DNA of 64,000 bases, taken from the IMG/VR virus record IMGVR_UViG_3300022821_000014, positions 26,968 to 90,967 of that record. One strand, written 5' to 3'. Position numbers and translations under genes: made by a program. The DNA comes from a virus. Positions within the stretch are counted from its first letter, which is position 1, and every line of letters begins with the position of its first letter. This document shows positions 4,988 to 63,442 of the stretch, in pieces. The notes beneath the pieces were generated by a model. The model was given only the letters and a program-made list of their open reading frames with translations, was not told the DNA's origin and searched no databases.

Positions 4988-7900
4988 TTACCCGCACTTT
5001 GAATGCCCACAACCTTGGCAGGTAATACAACCTTCTTGGTAAGCTAGGTCTTTTGAACTACAGTTCGGACACTTTTTGAGTGAAGGTTTAGTACCATTCT
5101 CGATGTAATGTTTGAGTACCCGCATCAGACCCTTGGCCATTGTAAACATCTCATTGTCCTTGTCAGCACCCTTTTCAATTTGTTCGGTGACATATTGGAC
5201 AGGAGCACCATGCCGAAGTGCAAGTGAAACGGTCCTAGTGAACGCACTTTCTGTGGTGTTTGCGAAAACTGATGCAAGGTCCTTGATCACAAGCTCATTT
5301 TCACCTTCACCTGTGTACAGATTGTAAGTGCCATTTTTCTTGATCACACCCCTCTTGCGACTACGTGGAAGGTGGATGTGTTCCGAGCGGCCAGCGAAAA
5401 TCTCGTAAGGTTTATCATCGTAGATCCCTACAAAGAAGTTCCACTTCTCACCACGAACCTGCATATGGTAGATGTCACAAGGGAGTTGTCCAGGGCGCTT
5501 TGGAGCATGGTGATAGGCAAATTTGTCTGATGAACGAATTTCATCCTCCGACACTAATACACCTGTACGACACTTGTCACGATACACAGTAACTCCCTTG
5601 CAGCCCGTTTCCCATCCAGCCATGTAAATGTCTTTGATTGTATCTACTGTAGTATCTTCTGGCACGTTGGTAGTGTTGCTGATTGAGTGACAAACCCACT
5701 GTTGAGCAGCGGCCTGGGCCTTTACTTTGTTTAACCAGTTAATATCGTTCGAAGTGGCGCCGTGGTAAGGACTGTCCTTTGGATCAGACTTTCCAGTTAC
5801 TTCCATCCACTTCTTAAACCAGTGATGGTAAACCGTGTATTCCTGCCACTTGTCGCCCATGTCGTCAACAAAATCAACACGGGCATCATGATCTCCTGGG
5901 TTGATCTTTCGTCGGCGCTTGTAGGACAGCATGAACGCTGGTTCAATGCCGCTGGTAGTTTGAGTAAGAACTGAAACAGAACCAGCTGGAGCTGTTGTCG
6001 TGTTTGCGATGTTCCGTCGACCGTACTTTTGCCAGGATTTTTTCATTTCTGGATCAAGGTCCATGATGCGGTTGATAAAGGGGTGATCCTTCTCAAGCTC
6101 GTAATCATACACAGGGAAGGCACCACGCTCTTCAGCAAGTTTCACGCTAGAACGGTGTGAATTTAGTGCCAGATTCTTGTATATTTCGTTGATAAGCTCA
6201 ATCGACTCTGGGGACCCGTAGACAACATTCATCGCTGCAACGGCATCACCTACCGCTGTAAGTCCAAGTCCAGTCCGTCGCCCATTTTCAGCAGTTGTTC
6301 GAATCTTGTTCCATAGATCAGCCTCCATTTTCTTTACATCAGGAGGTTCTGGATCGGCATCGATTTTCGCCAGGATTCGATCAATAGCTTCCAGCTCAAG
6401 CTCAACCAGGTCGTCCATGAGGCGCTGTGAATCCTGTACAACATTTGCAAACTCTTCCCAGTCAAATGCAGCTTCGGCTGTAAACGGGTTCTTGACGAAT
6501 GTTACAGAATTGACAAGTAGCAGTCTACACGAATCATATGGTGAGAGAGTTATTTCTCCGCAATTATGTGCAAAGGTTCCCTTGAATGACTTTGTACCAT
6601 CTTGTTGCCCTGTTATACCAGTAATGATGCCAACTGTGTGGCTGTCATCTACTGTAATATTGTACACAGAGTGTGTGCCTTCAACCTCTTCAACTAAAAC
6701 AATCTTATGGTTGTACTCAATACCTGCATCGCAAACTTCACTGTAGCTTTTAAAGCCATGCTTTATTTTTTGACCCAGCCTAAATGGGACGTTTTCTTGT
6801 TTACAGGCAGTTTCCCACTCCTTGGCCAACGGCTTTCGTCCTAGCTCGTACTGCAAGGAACTCCAAATTTTAATCTGGTCTCGCATTCGAAGCTCAGCCT
6901 TTTCTTTTGCCTTACGGTTAATGGCCTTTGTTCGCTTCGCATTTATACTCTGATCAGAATTCACGTATTCAAGTGAACATGCATGTGTACAGAAAGAAAT
7001 TTCTCTTCTGTTGTGTTCAGTTACAAATGATGTTGCACAAGTTTCGCACTCTTTCTTTACCTGAACCGTATTGTCAGAAATAAACGCCTCATAACCTTGT
7101 CTGATCATCTCTTGTAGTGTTCTAACCAAACGTGGGTCTTTGTCAGTGTGTTCATAGCCCAAAGTACTGGCGCAAAGCATAGAAAGTTCAGCAGGGCTTC
7201 GGCCTAAGACCGCATGATGCATTTTAGAGAATGTCTGTGGCAACCCTTTATTCTTGGCAAAATCTTGCCATTCCTGGTGTGAGAACCTTCGGCCAAGATC
7301 CTGAGTAAAATTCAGTGCTTCTTTATAGATTTCCTTAGATTTTTTTCCGAGGAATTTACCGTTGTTTGAACCATTGTTATCATGCGTTGCATGAAATTGC
7401 TGATGTTCACGAAAAGTCATTATCTCAAGATTATCAGGATCATTATTGGTGCCATCATAATCTTTGTGATGTACAACCAACCCTCCTTTTACCCAGCCAT
7501 TTTGTTTCTCAGCTTGGTACTTTTCGGTCCACAACTTACCTTGAGTGGCTTCAGCTATGAGTCTATGTTCGTATCTCTTTTTAGGTTCTGCCGAGCGGGT
7601 CTCAGTTTTTACTTGGTAGTATTTATTACCAGACTTATTCATGCAGACAGGAGTCTTGCTGAATGAGGGCAGGCTATCGCCAGGCACTAGATCCCTAGCA
7701 TTCTTTGTTTGACCGTCCCTGAGAATCATTTTATGATTCGGAGTGACCCTAAGGGTCGTTCCATCATCAAGCGTTATTTTTAATAGCTTCTGATTGAGGT
7801 TTGTCAGGCGAGGGTTTCTTCCTGTTTTTATTTCAACATGACCGTTTTTTGGATTTACTGAGTACAGTAGGACATCTTTACCTTCATCTGCGAGCTGTTT

Positions 7901-8833
7901 AATTGAAACAGCATCTCTACCGTCAGCCAACGCAATTAGTGTATCACTAGAAAAACATGGGTTAGTTGATACTGTTCCGAATCCTACTGATTCGTAGGCG
8001 TCTGCTGGAGAGTATTTCTTAACTGTATCCCAGAACAGAAGTCCAGGCTCAGCTGATTCATGGGCTGACTCAATAATTTCGTGCCAAAGCTCTGCTGCAT
8101 CGACCCAGGCTTCGACCTTTGGGTCTACTTTTTGAGTGATGGGCCAGCGAAGCTGAACTTCTTGACCCTTCTTGACTGCATTCATAAACTCATCCGAAAG
8201 TCGAATGGAAATGTTGGCTCCAGTCACACGCTTGCGGTCACGTTTGATGTTGATAAACGTGCGAATTTCTGGGTGGTGTACTGAGATTGAGAGCATTAGT
8301 GCACCTCGACGCCCTCCTTGTCCTACTTCACGACAGGTGTTTGAAAAACGATCCATGAAAACAGCTATACCATCCGTAGTCCTTGCTGCATTTGCCGTTA
8401 GGAGACCTTGAGGTCGGATACTTGAGATGTCAAAGCCAACACCGCCTCGGCGCTTCATCAGCTGAGCCTGTTCTTGGTCTGTCTTAAGGATACCTCCGTA
8501 AGAATCATACGGCTCCTCAATCACAAAACAGTTGGATAGAGACATAACCTGATAAGGGTTTCCGACACCAGCCATCGGCGATCCTTGGGGGATTATGTAT
8601 TTGAAATCTTTGAGGTACTGGTAAATTGCCTCTTCGGACAGCCCGTTTTTAAACTTACCTTCAATTCTTGCAAACTCGCTTGCAAGCCTCCTGTGCATAT
8701 CTTCAGGAGTTGTTTCTTCTAAACCACCTCTTGGGTTGTTTATAGCATATTTTGTAATAAAAACATTGGCTGCTAGTTCATCGTTCTTGAAATATTTTAG
8801 TGATTGCTTATGTGCTTCTTCGAATGTTGCCAT
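4988..8833 (-). CDS. nrdJ: Class II (B12-dependent) ribonucleotide reductase with intein
   Basis: SNCFV, TNP|C-GE, RRTGLG, TAPAGSVS, TTSGIEP, GCKGVTVYR; C-terminal Zn ribbon. Confidence 0.93.
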   Translation of the reverse strand: MATFEEAHKQSLKYFKNDELAANVFITKYAINNPRGGLEETTPEDMHRRLASEFARIEGKFKNGLSEEAIYQYLKDFKYIIPQGSPMAGVGNPYQVMSLSNCFVIEEPYDSYGGILKTDQEQAQLMKRRGGVGFDISSIRPQGLLTANAARTTDGIAVFMDRFSNTCREVGQGGRRGALMLSISVHHPEIRTFINIKRDRKRVTGANISIRLSDEFMNAVKKGQEVQLRWPITQKVDPKVEAWVDAAELWHEIIESAHESAEPGLLFWDTVKKYSPADAYESVGFGTVSTNPCFSSDTLIALADGRDAVSIKQLADEGKDVLLYSVNPKNGHVEIKTGRNPRLTNLNQKLLKITLDDGTTLRVTPNHKMILRDGQTKNARDLVPGDSLPSFSKTPVCMNKSGNKYYQVKTETRSAEPKKRYEHRLIAEATQGKLWTEKYQAEKQNGWVKGGLVVHHKDYDGTNNDPDNLEIMTFREHQQFHATHDNNGSNNGKFLGKKSKEIYKEALNFTQDLGRRFSHQEWQDFAKNKGLPQTFSKMHHAVLGRSPAELSMLCASTLGYEHTDKDPRLVRTLQEMIRQGYEAFISDNTVQVKKECETCATSFVTEHNRREISFCTHACSLEYVNSDQSINAKRTKAINRKAKEKAELRMRDQIKIWSSLQYELGRKPLAKEWETACKQENVPFRLGQKIKHGFKSYSEVCDAGIEYNHKIVLVEEVEGTHSVYNITVDDSHTVGIITGITGQQDGTKSFKGTFAHNCGEITLSPYDSCRLLLVNSVTFVKNPFTAEAAFDWEEFANVVQDSQRLMDDLVELELEAIDRILAKIDADPEPPDVKKMEADLWNKIRTTAENGRRTGLGLTAVGDAVAAMNVVYGSPESIELINEIYKNLALNSHRSSVKLAEERGAFPVYDYELEKDHPFINRIMDLDPEMKKSWQKYGRRNIANTTTAPAGSVSVLTQTTSGIEPAFMLSYKRRRKINPGDHDARVDFVDDMGDKWQEYTVYHHWFKKWMEVTGKSDPKDSPYHGATSNDINWLNKVKAQAAAQQWVCHSISNTTNVPEDTTVDTIKDIYMAGWETGCKGVTVYRDKCRTGVLVSEDEIRSSDKFAYHHAPKRPGQLPCDIYHMQVRGEKWNFFVGIYDDKPYEIFAGRSEHIHLPRSRKRGVIKKNGTYNLYTGEGENELVIKDLASVFANTTESAFTRTVSLALRHGAPVQYVTEQIEKGADKDNEMFTMAKGLMRVLKHYIENGTKPSLKKCPNCSSKDLAYQEGCITCQGCGHSKCG
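6563..7957 (-). mobile_element. Cis intein (465 aa) with HNH homing endonuclease in nrdJ
   Basis: Starts CFSSDT after TNP; block B VTPNHKM; HHKDYDGTNNDPDNL; VYNITVDDSH...HN followed by +1 Cys (CGEI). Confidence 0.93.
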
Positions 8834-18292: not shown

Positions 18293-18679
18293 TTAAATTG
18301 ACGCAGAATTGAGGGAAGTTTTACTACTTATGTGCAAGTTTGTAAGTTTGAGTACCGCTTCTTTAATAGCTACATTCAGTGTGAGTTTGACTACCACCAG
18401 ACGATACTTCATGATAAGTTTTTGTGCTTCCTTCACTGTCATCACAATTTCCTCTTCCACTCAGGCCATGAGGCAACCTGTTGCTTCGCTTTTTCGCTAG
18501 CGGAAATGATATCCTTGAGATAATATACCCTGCGCCAGGCGACCCTTGACTTATATCGGGCTATCAACTTCTTACAATCAGCGGGGTTCATACATTTTTA
18601 CCATATTGCTGGCTGCCTTGACAAGTTCCCAGTATCTGGTGTAGTACGTGATCAGCTTTCTACAGTCAGTCTTAGTCAA
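18293..18679 (-). CDS. Three coupled micro-ORFs (18578-18679, 18442-18591, 18293-18442)
   Basis: MTKTDCRKLITYY..., MNPADCKKLIARY...SWPEWKRKL and MTVKEAQKLIMKY...; overlapping stops/starts; missed by the ORF track. Confidence 0.55.
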
Positions 18680-19280
18680 TAACGGAAGTCTTACCAGACG
18701 CCTGCATGCAAGCAACTCGAACGGCTGTCTGAAGAACAACGGACAACATTGGAGATTCGTACAACTCTGAGGAGTACATTTGGTTCATGTGCCCAAGACT
18801 AGAAATTGCGTGCACTTCTTCTTCTGTGAGAAGAACTCTGGAGGAGTTTAACCACCAAAGCGAACGTTGAGTTGGATGCATCTTTGGGAGATTGGTATTC
18901 AACTCGTACATCATGCCCTTGTTGCGGTGCCAGTCACTTTCCTGCTCGACATAGTGGTCTTCTTCCTGATTGCCGATTTTACCTAGGTCGTGAAAAAGGC
19001 ACGTAACAATCAAACTATCTGCTGATAACTTGGACCCGAAAACCCTGTTAAGGTCTTTCGCAAGCTTGAGTACATTCAAGCTGTACTCAACAAGCCCACC
19101 TGGGTAGGCACCGACGAATTCAAGACGTGTAGAGGCTGGCGCAGCTGCCAGCCGTTCTTTTACTTCATCACAGAGTGAAAGAAGTTCAGTTTTCACATCT
19201 TCGTTTTTAATGCGACCAACTAGGCTCATATAAAGTTCCCAATTGGATTCAAGTCTTGCGACCAATTTATCGTGGCTCAT
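18672..19280 (-). CDS. HD-domain protein (YhaM-like)
   Basis: APAS...AYPGGLVE and CLFHDLGKIG. Confidence 0.75.
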   Translation of the reverse strand: MSHDKLVARLESNWELYMSLVGRIKNEDVKTELLSLCDEVKERLAAAPASTRLEFVGAYPGGLVEYSLNVLKLAKDLNRVFGSKLSADSLIVTCLFHDLGKIGNQEEDHYVEQESDWHRNKGMMYELNTNLPKMHPTQRSLWWLNSSRVLLTEEEVHAISSLGHMNQMYSSELYESPMLSVVLQTAVRVACMQASGKTSVID

Positions 19281-25542: not shown

Positions 25543-27873
25543 TTAGTCATCTTTACGTTCGATCACATCCAACTTGGTAAAATGTGTTGAAAGGCCGAAA
25601 TCTGACTTTTTAAATCTAGCTAACACAAGTGTATTGCTAGGAATCACTGCATCACGCTTAGGGTTGAATCCCCAGATAAAACACCCCTGCTCTGAGCCAG
25701 ACTCTCCATAGACTTTCATTCTCAGATATGGTTTTCCATTCCTTGTTTTGGCTACTACACTTCGTTTTACAACTGCCCAATAATAACTGTTTTCACTGCG
25801 CCATTCATCAACAGACCCAATACCATTTTCTTCGAAGTAGGCCTTGATCTCCTTTGTGATGATAAGGTTGATGTTCACTGAACCTGCAAGCGTCTGACTG
25901 TGCTCGATCTTCTCATCAATCGTCCAGTCCTTAAGCCCCTGAGCCTCCTTAATAAGGTCTTCCAGGATTTCTGGTGGACGTGGTTCTTTTTTCCGTGAAC
26001 AGGCTCTTTTTAGATTATCAGCTTGGTCGACAAGCACATAATGCATTTGGCGATAGTTCTTGAACATCTTGTCTTCACCGACAAGGTCCATAGACTCAAA
26101 AGCTTCAAGCTTTATAAGAGTTGAAAGGGCTCTCTTGTTGAATTTGCTGTGCCTCCATGTCTGATCCTGATTCCATAGAAGCTCCTCAACCGTTTTGTAG
26201 GGTCGGAATTCTTGAATTTCCCTTAGTGTGGGCATGCCAACATGCTTCAGTGCCTGGAAACTTGGAATTAGCACTCCGTTTTTGACCTGATAATCTGCCT
26301 CAGACTCGTTGATGTCAGGCTTCCCAACCTTGTAACCAAGACCCTTAGCTTCACCAAGGGCGATTGAGATAGGCGCTTCTTTGCCTGTAACGTGTCCCTT
26401 ATCAGTTGCACAGTAATCGATATAACTGGCCATCCACTCATCTGGATGATAGGTGAGAAGCCAAGCACACTGATATGAAGTGATGGCATAGGCGGTAGCG
26501 TGGCTCTTATTGAACGAGTATGCTACGAACTCTTCCATCTCGTCAAAAATCTTGTAGCTGGTAATCAGCTGCGTGCCGTGTACTTCTTTGCATTTGATGG
26601 CGAAATCTTCACGCATCTGCTTTCTCTGTGCGTCAGCTGCACCCTTGTTAGATTTGTCCTTCTTTGTGAAGGATTTACGAACCATGTCGGTCTCTTCGAG
26701 AGGAACCCCAGCCATCTGATGGTAGATGAGCTGTAGTTGCTCCTGGAAAACAATTAGTCCACAGGTGACATCCAGCACCTCTTCGAGTAACTCATGTTTG
26801 TAGATGATGCTCTCAGGGTTTTTGCGGTTGTTCAAATACAACTTGTCAGCTCCGATGGCTAGAGGTCCAGGGCGGAAAATCGAAGTTGCTGTTGCGATAT
26901 CAAGGATGGTCCTTGGCTTCATCTTCTTAATGAATTTCTGTACGGGAGGCTGGACGAACTGAAAAACTCCAGCCCAGTTGCCGTTCCAATACACATGTTT
27001 GTAGACTTTGATGTCATCCATCTGATTGTTGTCTGGATGAAGGTTCGTATAGAACCAGTCCTGCACATTTCGGAATGTTGGGTATTTGGTACCCTGTTTC
27101 TTTAGAATACGTCGAATTGTGTTCTCAAATATCCTAAGCGTACCAAGCCCAAGAATATCAAACTTTAGAAGCCCGAAACCTTCAAGGTGACGAAAATTCA
27201 ATCCCTCTTGCCAAGGCGTTTGAAGAACCCCACCGCTCTTGATGAGCGGCATGTGCTTATTGGGAGTCTCCGTAATGATGACGCCGCCAGCATGTCGTGA
27301 GACGTTTCTCATTTGCTTGAACAACACCTTGATGTTGTTTTCAAGGTCAGGGAACTCAACCATAAGCTCCTGAAAAGTCTTGGACTTCTCAGCTGCCTCG
27401 TCAAATGTCAATGTCCACAGCTGTCGGTCGAAGCCTGGCTTCTTCTTCGCCTCACCCAATGCCTCACTTTCAATTTTACGTGTGTATTTATTGACCTCTT
27501 CGAATGGCACTCCATTCAAGCGACACAAGTCCTTAACCAATGAGCGCATTTGAAGTTGGTTGAAGTTAGAAATCGGGATGACGTTCTCTTCACCAAAGTG
27601 TTCAGCAATAAGCTGAACTGCTTTCTCACGGTCTGAGAAATCAGAGTCAATATCGGGAAAGCCTTTCTTGAAGCGTGTGAGGAAACGCTCAAAAAGTAGG
27701 CCATACCTGATCGGGTCTAGCTGAGTAATGTTCAGAACATAAGCAAGCAAAGACCCGCCAGCAGAATTGTGTACTCCTAATCCTTCAATGTTATATGAAT
27801 GAGATTCACTGACGGTGAGATCATGAACCTTGCCTGTGTAATGGAATAGAGTCTTTTTTGTTAGCTTTGCCAA
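25543..27873 (-). CDS. dnaE: DNA polymerase III alpha C-terminal part with a 36-aa C-intein (27766-27873)
   Basis: VHDLTVSESHSY...VHN|SAGGSLLAY; PDIDSDF, SRHAGG, KFDILGL, GVFQF, FQEQ, YSFNKSHA. Confidence 0.95.
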   Translation of the reverse strand: MAKLTKKTLFHYTGKVHDLTVSESHSYNIEGLGVHNSAGGSLLAYVLNITQLDPIRYGLLFERFLTRFKKGFPDIDSDFSDREKAVQLIAEHFGEENVIPISNFNQLQMRSLVKDLCRLNGVPFEEVNKYTRKIESEALGEAKKKPGFDRQLWTLTFDEAAEKSKTFQELMVEFPDLENNIKVLFKQMRNVSRHAGGVIITETPNKHMPLIKSGGVLQTPWQEGLNFRHLEGFGLLKFDILGLGTLRIFENTIRRILKKQGTKYPTFRNVQDWFYTNLHPDNNQMDDIKVYKHVYWNGNWAGVFQFVQPPVQKFIKKMKPRTILDIATATSIFRPGPLAIGADKLYLNNRKNPESIIYKHELLEEVLDVTCGLIVFQEQLQLIYHQMAGVPLEETDMVRKSFTKKDKSNKGAADAQRKQMREDFAIKCKEVHGTQLITSYKIFDEMEEFVAYSFNKSHATAYAITSYQCAWLLTYHPDEWMASYIDYCATDKGHVTGKEAPISIALGEAKGLGYKVGKPDINESEADYQVKNGVLIPSFQALKHVGMPTLREIQEFRPYKTVEELLWNQDQTWRHSKFNKRALSTLIKLEAFESMDLVGEDKMFKNYRQMHYVLVDQADNLKRACSRKKEPRPPEILEDLIKEAQGLKDWTIDEKIEHSQTLAGSVNINLIITKEIKAYFEENGIGSVDEWRSENSYYWAVVKRSVVAKTRNGKPYLRMKVYGESGSEQGCFIWGFNPKRDAVIPSNTLVLARFKKSDFGLSTHFTKLDVIERKDD

Positions 27874-28777
27874 TGTTATTTTCCTTGTGCCACTTTCGAG
27901 CTTCTTTAATCAGTTGTTTCGGAATGTCAGAGTCAAATACTAGTCTAGCATAAAACTCGTTGTCTTTGCACCACGCCTTCAGTGCATGGTCTTTTGCGTT
28001 GCAGCGCCATTGCAATTTTTTGTAATAGAGGCCACCACGACCTTTCACTTCAACAATTCGATTTTGATTTACAATGAAATCTGGGTAGTATCGATGTTCT
28101 TTTCCTTCAAATACATACGGAATCCCCTCTAGATCAAATCGCTTAAGCGAATAACCTTTTTCTAGTGACCAGATAATGAACGCCAATTCATAAGAACTTT
28201 GGTATGTAAGACCTTCATACATACCAGATATCGCAATAGAATTTTTGATTACATTTTCACGGTATTCTGCGCTCTTCCAAAGCCTTTTCTCAATTTGTCT
28301 ATACTTCTCTTTCATGCCAGGTTGTGCATGTCTTCTTTTCTGTGAAGCTGTTTGCCTTGCAAGAGTTTCAGGCCGATTTTGCGCTATAAGTTGGGCTTTG
28401 CTATTGTTGGCTCGCCATTCGGTATCGTAGGCAAACTGTTCTTTGTAACAACTATCACAAACTGGTTTTTGGTGTTTCCTTCTCATAAACCCAAATACGA
28501 TACAAACATAGTCCTTACCACACGGACATTGGATGTAGAGGTTGTTTTTATTGTATTTGCTGTGAAGTTTTTGATTTGCCTGAAACTCCATCCAAGAGTA
28601 CCCAAACTTAGTTTCGATGCCCGAGCGCCAGGCTCGTCGCTTCAATGAATGCCAGGTCATCTTCCACTCTGTTAACATAGGTGCTAGCATGTCCTCTGTC
28701 AGACATGGAGATTCTATGTTCTCGATTGTCTGTAGTTGTTCTGCGGTCAACTTTGGACAAATTACACGGCCACCCAT
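27821..28777 (-). CDS. Free-standing endonuclease between the dnaE halves (TnsA-N-like PD-(D/E)XK)
   Basis: YQSSYELAF...IPY...RYYPDF...VEVKG; Zn-finger-like CPC/CDSC. Confidence 0.75.
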   Translation of the reverse strand: MGGRVICPKLTAEQLQTIENIESPCLTEDMLAPMLTEWKMTWHSLKRRAWRSGIETKFGYSWMEFQANQKLHSKYNKNNLYIQCPCGKDYVCIVFGFMRRKHQKPVCDSCYKEQFAYDTEWRANNSKAQLIAQNRPETLARQTASQKRRHAQPGMKEKYRQIEKRLWKSAEYRENVIKNSIAISGMYEGLTYQSSYELAFIIWSLEKGYSLKRFDLEGIPYVFEGKEHRYYPDFIVNQNRIVEVKGRGGLYYKKLQWRCNAKDHALKAWCKDNEFYARLVFDSDIPKQLIKEARKWHKENNIGKANKKDSIPLHRQGS

Positions 28778-28820
28778 GTTCGTGAATAGTTGTGTTCAAT
28801 GGTAAAGGCCGAGGGACTGG

Positions 28821-28948
28821 TTATGAAACCAATACATGGATTAGAAACATTGGCAAAGGGCAAAAATGCAAGTTTAAACCATCTGCTTTTTGTCCCAAAA
28901 CAAACCAACCCACAAATCACGTGGTTCAAATTTCACTGCCAGCTTCAT
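28821..28948 (-). pseudogene. Small frameshifted passenger ORF inside the fractured dnaE locus
   Basis: MKLAVKFEPRDLWVGLFWDKK, then in the -1 frame ADGLNLHFCPLPMFLIHVLVS*; ATGA-coupled to the dnaE-N stop. Confidence 0.45.
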
Positions 28949-30687
28949 ACTTCAACGACAACATCTTCTTCGGTGAGGTGTTGAGCTTCGACCCAGCTTC
29001 TATTTGAAGTTAGAATCTCATGGTTCTTGGTACATCTAATCACCTTACCGTTGTCGAGTTCAAGTTCAATACATTCTTCATCGATGTCATATGTCATAGT
29101 GTTTTCCACAGATTGTTCATTACCAAATGCGTCTATTACTTTATCGCTGATGATGATATCTTGAATTTTGGCATGCAACCCATCCGCCATTTTCACACGA
29201 GACCCTGGGAGAAAGCATCCTCGGGCGTTTCCAATCAGCATGTGTTCACTTACAATCTCCATAATTTTGGAGTACGTGAGGAAATACTTTGAGAAGTTCA
29301 GATGCTTGATGACCTTCAGCTCGTGCTTGAGTCGGGCAATGTACTCCTGGTTTTCAGCAAACCCTCTGCGTTTTATACCTGCAATTGCCTGACGCTTCAG
29401 TTCCTGAAAAGCAACCTGGTCTTCGGTCGCCTCGGTCCCAACCTTATCATAGATTGTTTCCAACTCAAACTTATCTACCATGCGACTGATCGATGGTAGT
29501 TTTACAGAACGATCTGGCGTGATATCATCAATCTGGTCGTGAGCAATTGTGTGTGTTCGTTCAATAGCCTCGCACACCAGATCGTCATCATAGAAATCCC
29601 AGCCCTTGCCTTCCTTATACCTGTGGTATGATTCCCAAACCTGCTCGGCATTCTTTGGATAAAGTTCACATTTCAACTCTTCCATCTTCTGCGGGAGTTT
29701 GGAAGTATCCAAGCCTTGGCCTCTGGAAGACCACGCCATCATCTTGTAAATCTCACGCTGCTTCCAGTGGTCTGGGTGAGAGTAGTGTGCATCCACTGTT
29801 ACAACAAGCTTAGTATTTGTACGCTTACTCGCTTCAATGAGATGTTGGTTTACAAGATGCTGCGCTCCCAGGGAGTTGAACTGAAGTTCGAGATAATAAT
29901 TCTCTTCACCAAGAGCCCACTTGAAGCCATCAACAACCTTTTTCAATTCCTGTTGAATCTCATCAAAGTGCAGGTCATTGGGCTCCCAGTTCTCGAAGTT
30001 TGGGTCTTTCTGTCGGTCAAATACCTTCCGTGCGGGTACTCCACCTACACATGCCGTTAGAGCAATGATGTTACCCTTTGCGTACTTCTTGAGCATCTCC
30101 AGGTCCATCCTGGGGTAGCGATAAAAGCCATCAACGTAAGACTCAGAAACAAGCTGGTTAAGTGCTGTAAGGCCCTCACGGTTTTTTGGAAGTAAAACAA
30201 GGTGATTTCTCTGGTTCAGAGGGTCGCCATATTTATTGCCCTTCGTTTCTTCCTCGTTTTCTACTACCGTGCCCGCAACCGTATCTTCCAAATCAAGTTT
30301 TGTTGAGGCATATGCATCCCCAAGAAGCTCTAGATGTCTCTTGAGCTGGTCCTTAGCATCGACATTACCCTTCTTTACTAGCTTCTCTAGACGCTTGATT
30401 TCTCTACGGCCATCATAAATTTCCTGCCATCGTGGAAGTGAATCAATGAAGTAAGCTTCAATGCCTGGCAGTGCCTTGAAGTTCACGCCCTTCTTTACCA
30501 GTTTTTCATGGTGAAAAAACTGGTGTGAATAACCATTCATGTTGCCATGGTCTGTAAGCGCCAGGGCATCCATTCCGTTATCAATGGCATAATTGATATG
30601 ATCTTGCGGCATGCCGATTGCATCACCAATCGAAAACGTACTGTGGGAATGCAATCCCACAAACTTCTTAGGGTATTTCTTATTCAT
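28945..30687 (-). CDS. dnaE: DNA polymerase III alpha N-terminal (PHP) part with a 90-aa N-intein (28948-29217)
   Basis: LHSHSTFS, ALTDHG, HLVLL, DAHY; GNARG|CFLPGS...CTKNHEIL...VEV*. Confidence 0.95.
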   Translation of the reverse strand: MNKKYPKKFVGLHSHSTFSIGDAIGMPQDHINYAIDNGMDALALTDHGNMNGYSHQFFHHEKLVKKGVNFKALPGIEAYFIDSLPRWQEIYDGRREIKRLEKLVKKGNVDAKDQLKRHLELLGDAYASTKLDLEDTVAGTVVENEEETKGNKYGDPLNQRNHLVLLPKNREGLTALNQLVSESYVDGFYRYPRMDLEMLKKYAKGNIIALTACVGGVPARKVFDRQKDPNFENWEPNDLHFDEIQQELKKVVDGFKWALGEENYYLELQFNSLGAQHLVNQHLIEASKRTNTKLVVTVDAHYSHPDHWKQREIYKMMAWSSRGQGLDTSKLPQKMEELKCELYPKNAEQVWESYHRYKEGKGWDFYDDDLVCEAIERTHTIAHDQIDDITPDRSVKLPSISRMVDKFELETIYDKVGTEATEDQVAFQELKRQAIAGIKRRGFAENQEYIARLKHELKVIKHLNFSKYFLTYSKIMEIVSEHMLIGNARGCFLPGSRVKMADGLHAKIQDIIISDKVIDAFGNEQSVENTMTYDIDEECIELELDNGKVIRCTKNHEILTSNRSWVEAQHLTEEDVVVEV

Positions 30688-43360: not shown

Positions 43361-43395
43361 ATTGTTGATTCTAAGGGTGATATTTACGGTTGTCC

Positions 43396-44940
43396 ATGAA
43401 TAATCCAAAACTTACAATATTGATTGAGCGAATTGTTGACGAAGTCCTCAAAGAGGACCGAGCTGACATTTCTGCTGACTATGTTGCTTCTATAAAAAGC
43501 AAAGACCCAGAGCTGTATAATGACCTTATGCAGCATGCTGAGTTTGTCATCCAAGCTACGAAAAACAAGTATAAACCATCTGATAAACTTGTTACCATAC
43601 ATCGTCTGTTGAATTCGGATCCAAACCTTGACCCGAGATCTTCAGGAGATACACATGGTGTCCGCCTTTTTATCGACTACCTCGCACGTGAGGAAGGTAA
43701 GGATTCAGAGGACTCCAGAGAGTTTGCTGGCAAAGCTAAGCGATGGTATCAATCTACGATTGATGCTTTGCTCAAAAAAGTCTTCCAGGAATCAACTACT
43801 GAAAAGAAGCGTAAAGTGCTAAGTGAAGCAGTTAGAAAGCCTTTCAACATGGACCTGCCTAGGGATCTACTAACCTTGGCAGATATCTTCACCCTAAACA
43901 GCTTTCAGCTAGTTGTTGTGGGTGGAGCGGTTCGTGATGCTCTATTGGGTAAGGAACCAAAGGACTACGACGTTGCAACAAACGCACAGCCCGACGAGGT
44001 GTTGTCTATGTTGGCAGGGCACCCACAGTTCAAGACACTGGAAATCGGCAAATCCTTTGGTGTTATTAACGTAATCACTCCCGAAGGGAATGAATACGAA
44101 GTAGCTACCTATCGAAATGATATTGGAAGTGGACGTCGGCCTGATGCAGTTGAATTTACTACAATTGAGAACGACGTAAAGAGACGAGACCTTACAATCA
44201 ATGCACTCTTCTTTGACATTGCTGAGCAAGAGATCATCGATTATGTCGGCGGCATCAAAGATTTGGAGGCTGGGCGCATCCGAGCGGTTGGCGACGCCAA
44301 AGAAAGATTTGATGAGGACCCGCTTCGTATCCTACGTGCAATTAGGTTCTCAGCACGAATGGGTGCAGGGCTTGATGACAATACTGAAGAAGCTATCCGC
44401 AACGACAACACACTAAGAGGTGTCTCACCTGAGAGGGTTCGTGACGAGTTCCTCAAGTCAATCAAGACTGCCAGGTCAGTTCCAGCCCTGATGAGGCTTT
44501 ACGACAGTTTTGATCTCTGGGGACAAATCCTTCCAGGATTGAAAATCAACACGTGGTATCAAGAGACAAAAAACATTCCAGTGCTGCTTTCTTTACTTCT
44601 CCGTGAGAATCCTCCCAAGAGCCTGGGCAAAAAGATGAACAAGTTGAAATACAGTGTCGTTGAAACTCGTCAAATTATGTTTTTAACGATGTTCCAGGGT
44701 TTGACACCAGAAAACGCATATCAAATGAAGAAGCTGTGGAAATCAACCAGATTGACAGACCAGGATCTCGAAGAGTTCGCTAGGCTGAGTAACCACCCTA
44801 AAATGCAGCTTGTAAAGGCATTCAACCAGTACACACCTACGGTGGACGGGCAAGAACTGTTGGCACAGGGCTTCAAGGGTCGTGAGCTTGGACAGGAAAT
44901 TGAACGCAGAGAGATGGATCTGTTCAAAAGGCTTATCTAA
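43396..44940 (+). CDS. cca: CCA-adding tRNA nucleotidyltransferase (class II) with a ~140-aa N-terminal extension
   Basis: VGGAVRD, KDYDVAT, EVATYR, RRDLTINA, DEDPLRILRAIRF, SPERV. Confidence 0.92.
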   Translation: MNNPKLTILIERIVDEVLKEDRADISADYVASIKSKDPELYNDLMQHAEFVIQATKNKYKPSDKLVTIHRLLNSDPNLDPRSSGDTHGVRLFIDYLAREEGKDSEDSREFAGKAKRWYQSTIDALLKKVFQESTTEKKRKVLSEAVRKPFNMDLPRDLLTLADIFTLNSFQLVVVGGAVRDALLGKEPKDYDVATNAQPDEVLSMLAGHPQFKTLEIGKSFGVINVITPEGNEYEVATYRNDIGSGRRPDAVEFTTIENDVKRRDLTINALFFDIAEQEIIDYVGGIKDLEAGRIRAVGDAKERFDEDPLRILRAIRFSARMGAGLDDNTEEAIRNDNTLRGVSPERVRDEFLKSIKTARSVPALMRLYDSFDLWGQILPGLKINTWYQETKNIPVLLSLLLRENPPKSLGKKMNKLKYSVVETRQIMFLTMFQGLTPENAYQMKKLWKSTRLTDQDLEEFARLSNHPKMQLVKAFNQYTPTVDGQELLAQGFKGRELGQEIERREMDLFKRLI

Positions 44941-47102: not shown

Positions 47103-47179
47103 TTCAATCTCCCTTAGCTGGATAGTTTGTGGTCATAGCAAACATAGATTATCTACAACAAAATAAACAGGAGAATGAA

Positions 47180-47863
47180 ATGAAAGAGAAATTGATAGTA
47201 GAGCTTCGAGCAGCCGAGGGTGGTAATGACTCGAAGGATTTGATTAGGGTTCAGTTTGGTATTTATTTGAAGGCGTGTAAATATCAAAAATTTGAGGCAG
47301 AGATTATCAGGACTGATGACGCCATCATTATCTTTTCGGTGAGAGGTAAGGGGGCCTGGGGCTTTTTTAAGGGAGAGGCTGGCGGTTTGCGCTGGCAACG
47401 AGTTCCTCCAAGTGAAAAACGGGGGCGTGTACAGACAAGTACCATTACGGTAGCTGTGCTCCCTGAGCCAAAGCGCCATGAGATTCACATTGACCCAAAG
47501 GACTTGAATGAAAAATTCACCTTTGGTTCTGGCGCAGGCGGACAACACCGTAATAAAAATGCGACTGCGGTGCAACTTACTCATATTCCTTCAGGGCTCT
47601 CTGTCCGTGCCGAAAGCGAAAAGAGCCAAAAGCAGAACAGGGAGAATGCTCTTGCTTTACTAAGAGCCAAGCTCCTAGAGCGGAAGAAAAACAAAGCAAA
47701 TGAAGCTCGGTTCAGGATGAGACAGGAACAAGTGGGGTCTGGTATGCGAGGTGACAAAGTTCGTACTATTAGAGTTCGGCACAATCAAGTTATAGACCAT
47801 GAATCGGGCAAGCAGATCACGTATAAGGATTACTCACGTGGTAAGCTCTGGGGTTTAAAATAA
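47180..47863 (+). CDS. Class I peptide release factor, RF1-like, lacking domain 1
   Basis: ELRAAEGG, EAGGLRWQRVPPSEKRGRVQTS, GAGGQHRNK, SQKQNRE, RGDKVRT. Confidence 0.9.
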   Translation: MKEKLIVELRAAEGGNDSKDLIRVQFGIYLKACKYQKFEAEIIRTDDAIIIFSVRGKGAWGFFKGEAGGLRWQRVPPSEKRGRVQTSTITVAVLPEPKRHEIHIDPKDLNEKFTFGSGAGGQHRNKNATAVQLTHIPSGLSVRAESEKSQKQNRENALALLRAKLLERKKNKANEARFRMRQEQVGSGMRGDKVRTIRVRHNQVIDHESGKQITYKDYSRGKLWGLK

Positions 47864-58423: not shown

Positions 58424-58485
58424 TTCGAATAGGTTCTAGTTTCAGCGACTAAATTAAAATAGCACGCCAGCTATGCCTAAAACAT

Positions 58486-58829: not shown

Positions 58830-58832
58830 CTA

Positions 58833-58910
58833 AAAGAGAAGATGGTTCGCAGGGTGACGGCGACTAATAATCGCTGGTGAAACGACGCCGTACATCTTGA
58901 AAATCTCTTT
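58833..58910 (+). ncRNA. AGAUGGUUCG-family structured RNA, copy A
   Basis: AAGAGA/TCTCTT and AGATG/CATCT stems; internal CGGCGA-CTAATAA-TCGCTG. Confidence 0.6.
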
Positions 58911-58919
58911 CTTTGATAT

Positions 58920-60594: not shown

Positions 60595-60596
60595 CT

Positions 60597-60663
60597 AAGA
60601 GAAGATGGTTCGCCGCCAATGGCCTGTGAAACGGCCGAATGGTTATGGTCTTGAAAATCTCTT
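60597..60663 (+). ncRNA. AGAUGGUUCG-family structured RNA, copy B
   Basis: AAGAGAAGATGGTTCGC...GTCTTGAAAATCTCTT. Confidence 0.6.
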
Positions 60664-60667
60664 TCAT

Positions 60668-61036: not shown

Positions 61037-61085
61037 CGAGAATAGATGGTTCGCAGGTCATGAACTTGCCGTACGTCTTTTCTCG
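61037..61085 (+). ncRNA. AGAUGGUUCG-family structured RNA, copy C
   Basis: CGAGAA/TTCTCG, AGATG/CGTCT, GCAGGT/ACTTGC. Confidence 0.6.
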
Positions 61086-61088
61086 TTT

Positions 61089-61124
61089 GCCGCCTAAGCT
61101 AATCTGGTGAAAGCGCCGAGTTGA
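61089..61124 (+). pseudogene. tRNA-Phe-like 5' half broken in the anticodon
   Basis: GCCGCCT-AA-GCT-AATCTGGTGAA-AGC-G-CCGAG-TTGA. Confidence 0.7.
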
Positions 61125-61454: not shown

Positions 61455-61500
61455 CTAAGTGCCTCGGAGAGTCAGGAACAAAACCTGAAGGCGGCACTAA

Positions 61501-61572
61501 GAGTAGATGGTTCGTTTTACGTCAACCGCCTCCCTAAAAGGGGATAAGGAACGATTTAGCTGTACGTCTCTC
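61501..61572 (+). ncRNA. AGAUGGUUCG-family structured RNA, copy D
   Basis: GAGTAGATGGTTCG...CTGTACGTCTCTC. Confidence 0.55.
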
Positions 61573-61576
61573 AATT

Positions 61577-61606
61577 TCTAGCCTAGCCAAGTGGCAAGGT
61601 GTTCAC
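61577..61606 (+). pseudogene. tRNA-Asn-like 5' stub
   Basis: TCTAGCC-TA-GCC-AAGTGGCAA-GGT, similar to the 5' end of 62194-62265. Confidence 0.65.
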
Positions 61607-62193: not shown

Positions 62194-62265
62194 TCTGGGG
62201 TGGCCAAGTGGTAAGGCGATCGGCTGTTAACCGATAGAGCGTGGGTTCGACCCCCACCCCCAGAG
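62194..62265 (+). tRNA. tRNA-Asn(GTT)
   Basis: ATCGG-CTGTTAA-CCGAT. Confidence 0.93.
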
Positions 62266-62354
62266 CTAACTGATTACCGTTCTAAACCCTCAAACTTTAT
62301 TATTTGAGGACTTGTCGGTTGGTTTTATATCTTAGCAGATACAAAATGCTATTT

Positions 62355-62425
62355 TCGGGGTTCGTCTAATGGCAGGACCGTGGTTTCTGGTACCACTAAT
62401 GGGAGTTCAAATCTCTCACCCCGAG
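62355..62425 (+). tRNA. tRNA-Gln(CTG)
   Basis: GTGGT-TTCTGGT-ACCAC. Confidence 0.88.
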
Positions 62426-62431
62426 TAATTT

Positions 62432-62513
62432 GGAAGGTACGGTGCATGGTGCACAACCAGTCTTGAAAACTGGCGCATGTGAAAGCATGGTGGTTCGACT
62501 CCTCTACCTTCCG
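62432..62513 (+). tRNA. tRNA-Ser(TGA)
   Basis: CCAGT-CTTGAAA-ACTGG; long variable arm. Confidence 0.85.
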
Positions 62514-62531
62514 CTCAGTAAAGTGAAATAT

Positions 62532-62603
62532 TCGGGAGTAGTTCAATGGTAGAGCGCTTGACTTTGAATCAAGTGGTTGTGAGTTCGAGTCTCACCTCCC
62601 GAT
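62532..62603 (+). tRNA. tRNA-Gln(TTG)
   Basis: CTTGA-CTTTGAA-TCAAG. Confidence 0.92.
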
Positions 62604-62606
62604 TTT

Positions 62607-62695
62607 GGAAGATAAACCTAGAGGGTTCTGGGGCTAGTTTGCTAAACTAAGTGGTCAAGAAATTGACTGGGGATCAAGACCTCTATCTTCCGCCA
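62607..62695 (+). tRNA. tRNA-Ser(GCT), CCA encoded
   Basis: TAGT-TTGCTAA-ACTA; long variable arm; T loop ATCAAGA. Confidence 0.82.
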
Positions 62696-62701
62696 ACTCA
62701 T

Positions 62702-62775
62702 TCCCGAGTGTTCTAATGGTTTATGATGCTGACCTCTGAAGTCATGCGATGTTGGTTCAAATCCAGCCTTGGGAG
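62702..62775 (+). tRNA. tRNA-Gln(CTG)
   Basis: TGAC-CTCTGAA-GTCA. Confidence 0.85.
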
Positions 62776-62924
62776 CTAAATGGTCAAATAGCTGGTTTTC
62801 TAAAATGGCAAATCCCCATTATTGGGTTTACACTACCAGCTGATTGTGTTTCTATTAGAGAATAGAGAAACGGGTCGCAAAGACCTAGCTACTCTAGACC
62901 TTGAAAACTGAATAAGAATACCAC

Positions 62925-62998
62925 GCTTCATAAGCATTGTTGGTTCGATGCACTCGCCTTGTAAGCGAGAGAGAACGGTTCGAGTCCGTTATGAAGCT
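62925..62998 (+). tRNA. tRNA-Thr(TGT)
   Basis: CTCGC-CTTGTAA-GCGAG. Confidence 0.92.
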
Positions 62999-63001
62999 CT
63001 C

Positions 63002-63069
63002 GAATAGGCTGTGCTTGTCTGGTCACCTAAGGCTGTTTCACAGCCCCACTATCAGTGGAACCAGAGTAT
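63002..63069 (+). ncRNA. Pseudoknotted inter-tRNA RNA, copy 1
   Basis: GCTGTG/CACAGC crosses CTGGT/ACCAG; hairpin CCACT/AGTGG; core GGTCACCTAAGG. Confidence 0.65.
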
Positions 63070-63140
63070 GCTCGCATAGTTCAATGGAAGAATATTCGGC
63101 TTCGAACCGAACGATCAAGGTTCAAATCCTTGTGTGAGTG
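63070..63140 (+). tRNA. tRNA-Arg(TCG)
   Basis: TTCGG-CTTCGAA-CCGAA. Confidence 0.9.
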
Positions 63141-63143
63141 CTA

Positions 63144-63214
63144 GAATAGCGACCGACAGTGTTTGGTCACCTAAGGGTGTTTCGGTCCCATCTTGAAAGA
63201 TGAAACCAAGGTAT
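63144..63214 (+). ncRNA. Pseudoknotted inter-tRNA RNA, copy 2
   Basis: GACCGA/TCGGTC crosses TTGGT/ACCAA; hairpin CATCT/AGATG; core GGTCACCTAAGG. Confidence 0.65.
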
Positions 63215-63288
63215 GCTCTGTTAGTGAAATTGGATTATCACGCTACCCTACGAAGGTTGTATTTCAGGTTCGAATCCTGGACAGAGTG
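63215..63288 (+). tRNA. tRNA-Arg(ACG)
   Basis: ACC-CTACGAA-GGT. Confidence 0.88.
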
Positions 63289-63295
63289 CTGAAAT

Positions 63296-63366
63296 GCGTT
63301 ATTAGTTTAGTGGTAAAATTCCTGCTTGCCATGCAGGGGTCCCGAGTTCGACCCTCGGATAACGCT
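63296..63366 (+). tRNA. tRNA-Gly(GCC)
   Basis: CCTGC-TTGCCAT-GCAGG. Confidence 0.92.
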
Positions 63367-63370
63367 CTTA

Positions 63371-63442
63371 GACGGGGACAGTTGGTAACACTGGCAGCGA
63401 ATTGCAACCTCGCTTTATAGAGTTCGATTCTCTACTCCGTCT
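63371..63442 (+). tRNA. tRNA-Cys(GCA)
   Basis: GCGAA-TTGCAAC-CTCGC; GACGGGG/CTCCGTC. Confidence 0.8.

Follow-up and report, generated by a model that had tools for sequence, protein, structure and literature searches.

This locus raises the question of whether two similar spacers in a phage tRNA array encode an RNA of their own, and what such an RNA might do among the tRNAs. The two spacers (S1 and S2) were pointed out in a first-pass annotation, which proposed an undescribed structured RNA, perhaps a new self-cleaving or processing element. Our analyses show that S1 and S2 are a real, undescribed, and orphan structured RNA. By sequence comparison, the two copies are paralogues of about 65 nt each.

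The source is an uncultured salt-lake giant phage, and its DNA is present in many salt-lake metagenome runs. The window, i.e. the whole stretch of DNA analysed, comprises the last 64 kb of a 90,967-bp IMG/VR record. The record was estimated by CheckV to be ~20% complete; the phage genome is therefore several hundred kb long. The gene content of the window includes a terminase, DnaB, a CCA-adding enzyme, and a release-factor-like protein. The gene of the CCA-adding enzyme lies upstream of the tRNA array, and provides the context for tRNAs that lack an encoded CCA. The release factor gene (47129-47863) sits between the CCA enzyme and the tRNA array; it encodes a shortened class-I peptide release factor of 244 aa with PCRF and RF-1 domains. 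Two other genes carry inteins. The DNA polymerase III alpha subunit is encoded in two genes (25543-30687), the first of which ends in an intein/Hint fragment (split intein); the ribonucleotide reductase large subunit (4988-8833) contains an intein bearing an HNH domain.

The tRNA array extends from 55 kb to the contig end. It contains at least 25 tRNA genes, all on the + strand, with HNH endonuclease genes interspersed, and the inter-tRNA distance is mostly 4 to 17 nt. Most of the array tRNAs have (A/U)AU, or at least U, upstream of +1. The tRNA 3' ends between 57280 and 63367 are also uniform: nearly all lack CCA, with the first C alone encoded, and read N73-C-U, often N73-C-U-A-A. This array-wide N73-C-U trailer rule may be a processing signal. 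The features needed for the following analysis are listed below.

43390..44940, + strand: CCA-adding enzyme gene; Pfam PolyA_pol head domain (1.1e-34) plus RNA-binding domain
58425..58485, + strand: S3, a 61-nt spacer after tRNA-Glu(CUC)
62925..62998, + strand: tRNA-Thr(UGU), called by ARAGORN; Rfam tRNA score 54.4 bits; no encoded CCA; discriminator T62998
62999-63001, + strand: trailer C-U-C after tRNA-Thr(UGU)
63002..63065, + strand: element copy S1, 64 nt
S1, unpaired segments: 5' motif GAAUAG 63002-07; J1/2 CUUG 63014-17; UUU 63036-38; C63045; J4/2 A63059
S1, P1: 63008-13/63039-44; possible seventh pair G63007-C63045
S1, P2: 63018-23/63060-65
S1, P3: 63024-27/63032-35, mismatch C63026.C63033; loop UAAG 63028-31
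S1, P4: 63046-50/63054-58
63066..63069, + strand: GUAU leader of tRNA-Arg(UCG), with U at -1
63070..63140, + strand: tRNA-Arg(UCG), called by ARAGORN; Rfam score 65.6 bits; no encoded CCA; discriminator G63140
63141-63143, + strand: trailer C-U-A after tRNA-Arg(UCG)
63144..63210, + strand: element copy S2, 67 nt
S2, unpaired segments: GAAUAG 63144-49; C63150; J1/2 CAGUG 63157-61; UU 63180-81; C63188; J4/2 AA 63203-04
S2, P1: 63151-56/63182-87
S2, P2: 63162-67/63205-10, wobble U63162.G63210
S2, P3: 63168-71/63176-79; loop UAAG 63172-75
S2, P4: 63189-93/63198-202
63211-14, + strand: GUAU leader, followed by tRNA-Arg(ACG) at 63215-63288, + strand, called by ARAGORN and Rfam

Both spacers were annotated as starting 3 nt after a tRNA discriminator and ending with GTAT right before a tRNA-Arg. 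These positions are right: GAATAG begins 3 nt past each discriminator (at 63002 and 63144), and GTAT abuts G+1 of the tRNA-Arg. As borders of the element, however, they need correction, as the CT on the 5' side and the TAT on the 3' side belong to the array generally. Since CU and UAU are near-universal at the array tRNAs, the element proper was delimited as 63002-63065 and 63144-63210. Each copy follows a CCA-less tRNA, precedes a tRNA-Arg, and lies on the same strand as the tRNAs. The GUAU leader at 63066-63069 is the expected context for RNase P, which would cleave there. No sigma-70-like promoter or terminator was found within 62194-63440, and co-transcription with the tRNAs therefore fits.

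Several other features of the array were observed around the element. Two sequences resemble tRNAs by eye, a Ser(GCU)-like one with a long extra arm and an encoded CCA (62605-62697) and a Cys(GCA)-like one (63371-63441); ARAGORN and the Rfam tRNA model (E up to 1) call neither of the two. The last stretch of the contig (63447-64000) starts with a tRNA 5' stub (GCUUCCUUAGUAUAGUGG...), followed directly by an ORF that is rich in CxxC motifs and runs off the contig end. This ORF has no Pfam match, and the arrangement resembles a further nuclease cassette within a tRNA gene. Behind tRNAs or tRNA stubs there is also a second repeated element, at 58831-58915, 60596-60665, 61037-61095, and 61497-61580. 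It begins with CUAAGAG(A/U)AGAUGGUUCG (GAGAAUAGAUGGUUCG in one copy), two copies end with CAUCUUGAAAAUCUCUUUC, which is able to pair back to the start, and it appears to be tied to the HNH cassettes. The 148-nt spacer between tRNA-Gln(CUG) and tRNA-Thr (62777-62924) contains several hairpins, including UUUCUAUU/AAUAGAGAAA around GAAUAG, and may be another structured RNA. The nearest relative, a 461-kb phage, has a 150-nt spacer of different sequence at the same place (locus L200, 12532-12681).

Comparison of the two copies confirmed the sequence blocks that had been reported for them, i.e. GAATAG, TGGTCACCTAAGG, TGTTTC, and AACCA. The 13-mer TGGTCACCTAAGG has exactly two occurrences in the 64 kb. 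Common to S1 and S2 is a 20-nt block, UGGUCACCUAAGG-N-UGUUUC, which is identical except for N, together with GAAUAG and AACCA. Base pairs were tabulated by script from both copies, and the two paralogues of this one phage supply all of the structural and covariation evidence. The table contains 21 pairs in four helices; between S1 and S2, 8 of the 21 pairs are changed on both sides yet still paired, and only one is broken. The first-pass annotation had described three covarying stems, and compensating changes were indeed found in all three (P1, P2, and P4). In P1, pairing is kept although five of the six pairs are altered on both sides. The P4 helix has 5 pairs, two of them with double changes. 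The P2 stem covaries as claimed: one pair is doubly changed, and a U-A pair has become U.G. It is one pair longer than previously written (6 pairs). The added helix P3 (CACC/G-N-UG, loop UAAG) has 4 pairs without variation and one C.C mismatch in S1.

P1 interleaves with P2, forming a true pseudoknot. The strand order P1-P2-P3-P1'-P4-P2', which the first-pass annotation had recognized as that of HDV-like ribozymes, was found in the same layout in S1 and S2. P1' passes into P4 through one C, and P2 continues directly into P3. The predicted fold is a compact nested double pseudoknot in which P1 stacks with P4, and P2 with P3. When the variable segments were shuffled (100,000 trials), P1 and P4 occurred together in 0.04% (S1) and 0.2% (S2) of the trials. 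The nested minimum-energy fold of S1 differs from that of S2, and the knot is therefore the only fold common to both. The single wobble pair of P2 (U.G) would be a C.A mismatch on the opposite strand; because it fits the + strand only, the RNA lies on the tRNA strand. A covariance model built from S1 alone (R1) recovered S2 at an E-value of 6e-9, although it misregisters P1 of S2. RNAalifold misses the knot on the MAFFT alignment, because MAFFT misaligns P1 and P4. For these two reasons, the pair table was made by script.

The 5' motif shows two complementarities to the invariant core. UAG(G) is complementary to (C)CUA of the P3 loop, and GAAUA(G) is complementary to (C)UGUUU; the latter pairing excludes P1 and P3. 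Both partners are invariant in each case, so these pairings have no covariation. The P2-P3 arm with its UAAG loop is conserved, as are the UUUC that comes after it and the GAAUAG at the 5' side; P1 and P4 vary freely by compensation. The flanking tRNA-Arg genes are very different from each other. S1 and S2 are thus probably old paralogues, their P1 helices differing at five of six pairs. The variable P1 set against the near-identical 20-nt block indicates probable selection on a specific surface, and not recent copying.

Homologues of the element were searched in several collections. In the IMG/VR viral contigs, exact-core patterns gave coding or chance matches alone, and the looser pattern GAATAG-N(14-26)-CCTAAGGNNNTTT gave no match. 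No match to the core pattern was found in the JGI metagenome contigs or in the GTDB genome contigs. Searching INPHARED phages by blastn returned one tRNA-Thr match and no element at E up to 1e-5, and only chance matches of 18-24 nt at E up to 10. The R1 model found nothing beyond S2 in the rest of the window and the phage's own record, and had no match in 14 whole phage records with related CCA enzymes or in loci L177-L219. A loose HDV descriptor and a descriptor of the P1/P2/P4 topology gave matches at background level (~4 per 9 kb, the same in shuffles), and such descriptors cannot detect analogues with a different core. Contigs from four salt-lake DNA runs cover the element; these are identical to the window and contain no natural variants.

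The nearest relative found is a 461-kb phage (IMGVR_UViG_3300005974_000004), with 73% identity in the CCA enzyme and a clearly syntenic array. Its orthologous Thr-to-Arg interval, at the place of S1-Arg(UCG)-S2, has no S-like element. This interval, from tRNA-Thr(CGU) to tRNA-Arg(ACG) (L200 12759-13377), contains a tRNA-like sequence with a long insertion, a tRNA-Arg(UCG) 5' stub, and an HNH-type ORF. The stub is identical to the start of the relative's own tRNA-Arg(UCG), of which an intact copy lies at 18666-18738. Further homologues with covariation, whose absence the first-pass annotation had named as counting against its reading, were found neither in IMG/VR, JGI metagenomes, GTDB, and INPHARED nor in the relative's syntenic array, and this weakens that reading. 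The element appears to be an orphan among the collections searched. Since it is absent from the nearest relative and from all of these collections, its function is either dispensable or very young.

One further spacer of the array shares part of the sequence. S3 opens with the 9-mer UCGAAUAGG, the same as in S1, and GUUUCA follows 6 nt later; the remainder is unlike S1 and S2, and R1 does not match it. S3 may be a decayed or cut-down relative, or may share a trailer motif alone. The occurrence of UCGAAUAGG in a spacer without the knot suggests that the 5' motif might be able to act by itself, as a trailer signal.

The closest structural likeness of the element is to the theta ribozymes, minimal HDV-like ribozymes located beside phage tRNAs (Kienbeck et al. 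2024, PMC10879173; Rfam RF00094 and related families). Both have the nested double pseudoknot and both of the coaxial stacks (family description in PMC10879173), a short P3 with a conserved loop, and a size of ~65 nt. Like theta, the element is placed downstream of CCA-less phage tRNAs on the same strand, in a phage with a CCA-adding enzyme. However, the key residue is different. A catalytic C at the first position of J4/2 is essential in HDV-like ribozymes; its change to U abolishes cleavage, and motifs with A, G, or U at this position behave as false positives (PMC10879173). In the element, J4/2 consists of A63059 in S1 and A63203-A63204 in S2, or of GGA and GAA if P4 is shortened. It never has a C, and the earlier remark that the catalytic C is missing from this linker holds in every register.

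The base of P1 is also different. In HDV and CPEB3, the first base of P1, where cleavage takes place, is a G, and the helix is closed by a G.U wobble; P1 of the element starts with G but pairs it with C (G63008-C63044, or G63007-C63045, in S1; G63151-C63187 in S2). P3 and P1' are separated by two to three U's that have no counterpart in HDV. An invariant GAAUAG precedes P1, a region in which HDV-like ribozymes have no sequence requirement. In tRNA-associated theta ribozymes, the cleavage site (the first P1 base) lies within +/-5 nt of the tRNA 3' end (PMC10879173), whereas P1 of the element begins 10 nt (S1) or 11 nt (S2) past the discriminator. The Rfam HDV-type models gave no match even at E up to 10. 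In both copies, the CC that follows P1' could pair with the GG in the loop CUAAGG as a possible two-pair P1.1, which shows no covariation; the same CC could extend P4 instead, and this alternative has one compensated pair. A register with P1.1 and a J4/2 of 3 nt can be drawn (4 nt if P2 is 5 bp, as in HDV). By its predicted structure, the element is a variant of the HDV-like fold without the catalytic feature that defines the family. The missing catalytic C, the G-C closing pair, the U spacer, the distance of P1, and the conserved 5' motif are the reasons for not filing it as an HDV-like ribozyme. Nor are S1 and S2 decaying HDV-like ribozymes, because both diverged copies lack the C yet are under purifying selection.

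What the element does may be explained in several ways. A new self-cleaving ribozyme, using the HDV-like double-pseudoknot scaffold with a different active site, is a possible but somewhat doubtful candidate. Cleavage within or beside the 5' GAAUAG, or where P1 begins, would separate the knot from the CCA-less tRNA upstream of it. The chemistry might be performed by G63057 (S1) or G63202 (S2), which occupies the place of HDV C75 in the alternative register, or by an acid-base group from outside the RNA. The more specific proposal is unlikely, namely that a self-cleaving class which has the HDV scaffold but not the catalytic cytosine is represented here for the first time, by S1 and S2, and that its general acid-base group is a J4/2 guanine or a bound small-molecule cofactor. 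The matching strand order and stacks, the theta-like location directly 3' of CCA-less tRNAs in a phage with a CCA-adding enzyme, the complementarity of the invariant 5' tail to invariant core bases, and the purifying selection on two copies without the C are all consistent with a ribozyme. Moreover, all five HDV helices are obtained if the CC after P1 pairs with the loop GG like P1.1. The compact size, short junctions, and invariant junction bases, together with the site 3' of CCA-less tRNAs, also look like those of a small self-cleaving ribozyme. Against this stand the loss of activity on replacement of the catalytic C and the false-positive behaviour of A, G, or U motifs in the HDV-like family (PMC10879173), as well as the absence of a G.U pair from the base of P1. 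If P1 were the site of cleavage, a trailer of 9 to 10 nt with a cyclic phosphate would remain, and most other CCA-less tRNAs of the array, several of them followed by long spacers, have no such element. The extra pairings show no covariation, and that of GAAUAG excludes P1 and P3.

A spacer or processing platform that acts purely in cis, with no role once excised, seems quite unlikely. The knot would prevent neighbouring tRNAs from misfolding together, and would hold GAAUAG and the GUAU leader single-stranded, so that endonucleases can reach them, or stall exonucleases. The position of both copies between a CCA-less tRNA and a tRNA-Arg fits such a platform, as do the S1 9-mer after tRNA-Glu(CUC) in a knot-less spacer and the ring of about 17 nt that, judging from the pair list, the knot would close around the P1 strand. 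However, an insulator needs no 20-nt core that is invariant but for one position; most array tRNAs stand 4 to 17 nt apart without such a module, and the relative's array works without the element. It is very improbable that S1 and S2 are a functionless relic, either of a decayed tRNA gene or of an HNH-cassette rearrangement. In favour of a relic, tRNA 5' stubs and genes for HNH endonucleases abound in the region, the orthologous place in the relative is occupied by an HNH gene and a stub of tRNA-Arg(UCG), and the spacers have the size of tRNAs. Nevertheless, S1 and S2 score in the same range as shuffled sequences when aligned to the array tRNAs, neither copy is called by ARAGORN or the Rfam tRNA model, and a relic would not preserve eight compensated pairs and a near-invariant core. 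The explanation that we prefer, tentatively, is a small RNA that RNase P and the machinery for tRNA 3' ends would excise from the tRNA precursor, and that would present its invariant P2-P3 arm to a partner. This excised RNA is favoured because the fold covaries, the surface is conserved, there is no internal promoter or terminator, and the borders are those of the array in general; the CCA enzyme of the phage, the lack of a match to any known family, and the precedent of T4 RNAs C and D point in the same direction.

In the preferred explanation, S1 and S2 would be a lineage-specific small non-coding RNA embedded in the phage tRNA operon. The precursor would be cut after the upstream discriminator by the host machinery for the 3' ends of CCA-less tRNAs, by RNase Z or an RNase E-type cut; GAAUAG presumably resembles an RNase E site. 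RNase P would cut at UAU|G of the downstream tRNA-Arg. The product would be a knotted, exonuclease-resistant RNA of about 65 to 70 nt. The invariant arm might then be a recognition surface for a protein or RNA partner, e.g. as a decoy or cofactor, and the variable helices might be scaffold only. CCA-less upstream tRNAs need a cut at or near N73 before CCA addition by the phage or host enzyme, and RNase P is expected to cut at the 5' ends of the tRNA-Arg; a knotted RNA of about 65 to 70 nt would therefore be released. Biogenesis by tRNA-processing cuts is close to forced, whatever the function may be.

Small knotted RNAs beside phage tRNAs are an emerging hidden layer of phage biology; the HDV-like theta ribozymes were described only in 2024. 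The present element keeps the whole HDV-like architecture under purifying selection, minus the residue that makes the fold catalytic. If it is a ribozyme, the fold would be catalytic by another chemistry, which would make a new class and test the coupling between fold and mechanism; members of such a class would separate CCA-less phage tRNAs from the knot, and a version that depends on a cofactor would be a ribozyme-switch controlling tRNA maturation. If the element is non-catalytic, an HDV-like fold has been recruited for another job in tRNA operons. The value of the element is limited by its known occurrence as two copies in one uncultured phage.

The element was also compared with other known families. 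The first-pass annotation had regarded the RNA as undescribed, and this is borne out by Rfam 15, which at gathering scores gives only tRNA matches in the searched sequence and at E up to 10 gives nothing relevant over the spacers. A tRNA origin was rejected, since neither copy is called as a tRNA by ARAGORN or Rfam RF00005, and since their best scores in local alignments against the 26 array tRNAs stay inside the shuffle range. Likenesses seen by eye to a CRISPR repeat, a type III antitoxin, the 16S rRNA 3' end, and the T-box UGGN/NCCA pairing were dropped, because each rests on 4 to 6 bases.

Pistol ribozymes, like the element, are small knotted RNAs found in phages. Some motifs of the element, AAUAG and a CCUAAG beside a hairpin followed by the P2 closing strand, look similar to those of one pistol sequence. 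The knot in pistol (Rfam RF02679; Harris et al. 2015) joins the P1 hairpin loop to the P2/P3 junction, and a strictly 2-nt P3-P2 junction carries the cleavage site (PMC4604425). By contrast, the element has no 5' hairpin, its knot is P1 crossing P2, and the junction measures 2 nt in S2 but 1 nt in S1. Pistol membership was rejected on the basis of the different knot and junction length, and of the lack of an RF02679 match at E up to 10. The hatchet ribozyme has four stems and no knot; its P1 is a hairpin beginning at the cleavage site, and conserved bases are located in L2 and between P1 and P2 (PMC6561176). Hatchet was also rejected, since P1 of the element is a long-range helix crossing P2 and no RF02678 match was found at E up to 10.

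Finally, the tRNA cluster of phage T4 contains two stable non-tRNA small RNAs, C and D (species 1 and 2). These are co-transcribed with the tRNAs and released by tRNA-processing enzymes; they are about 120 to 140 nt long and partly tRNA-like. In these general properties, the element is similar to RNAs C and D as a non-tRNA RNA inside a phage tRNA cluster, and differs from them in its size of about 65 nt, its double pseudoknot, and its two copies.
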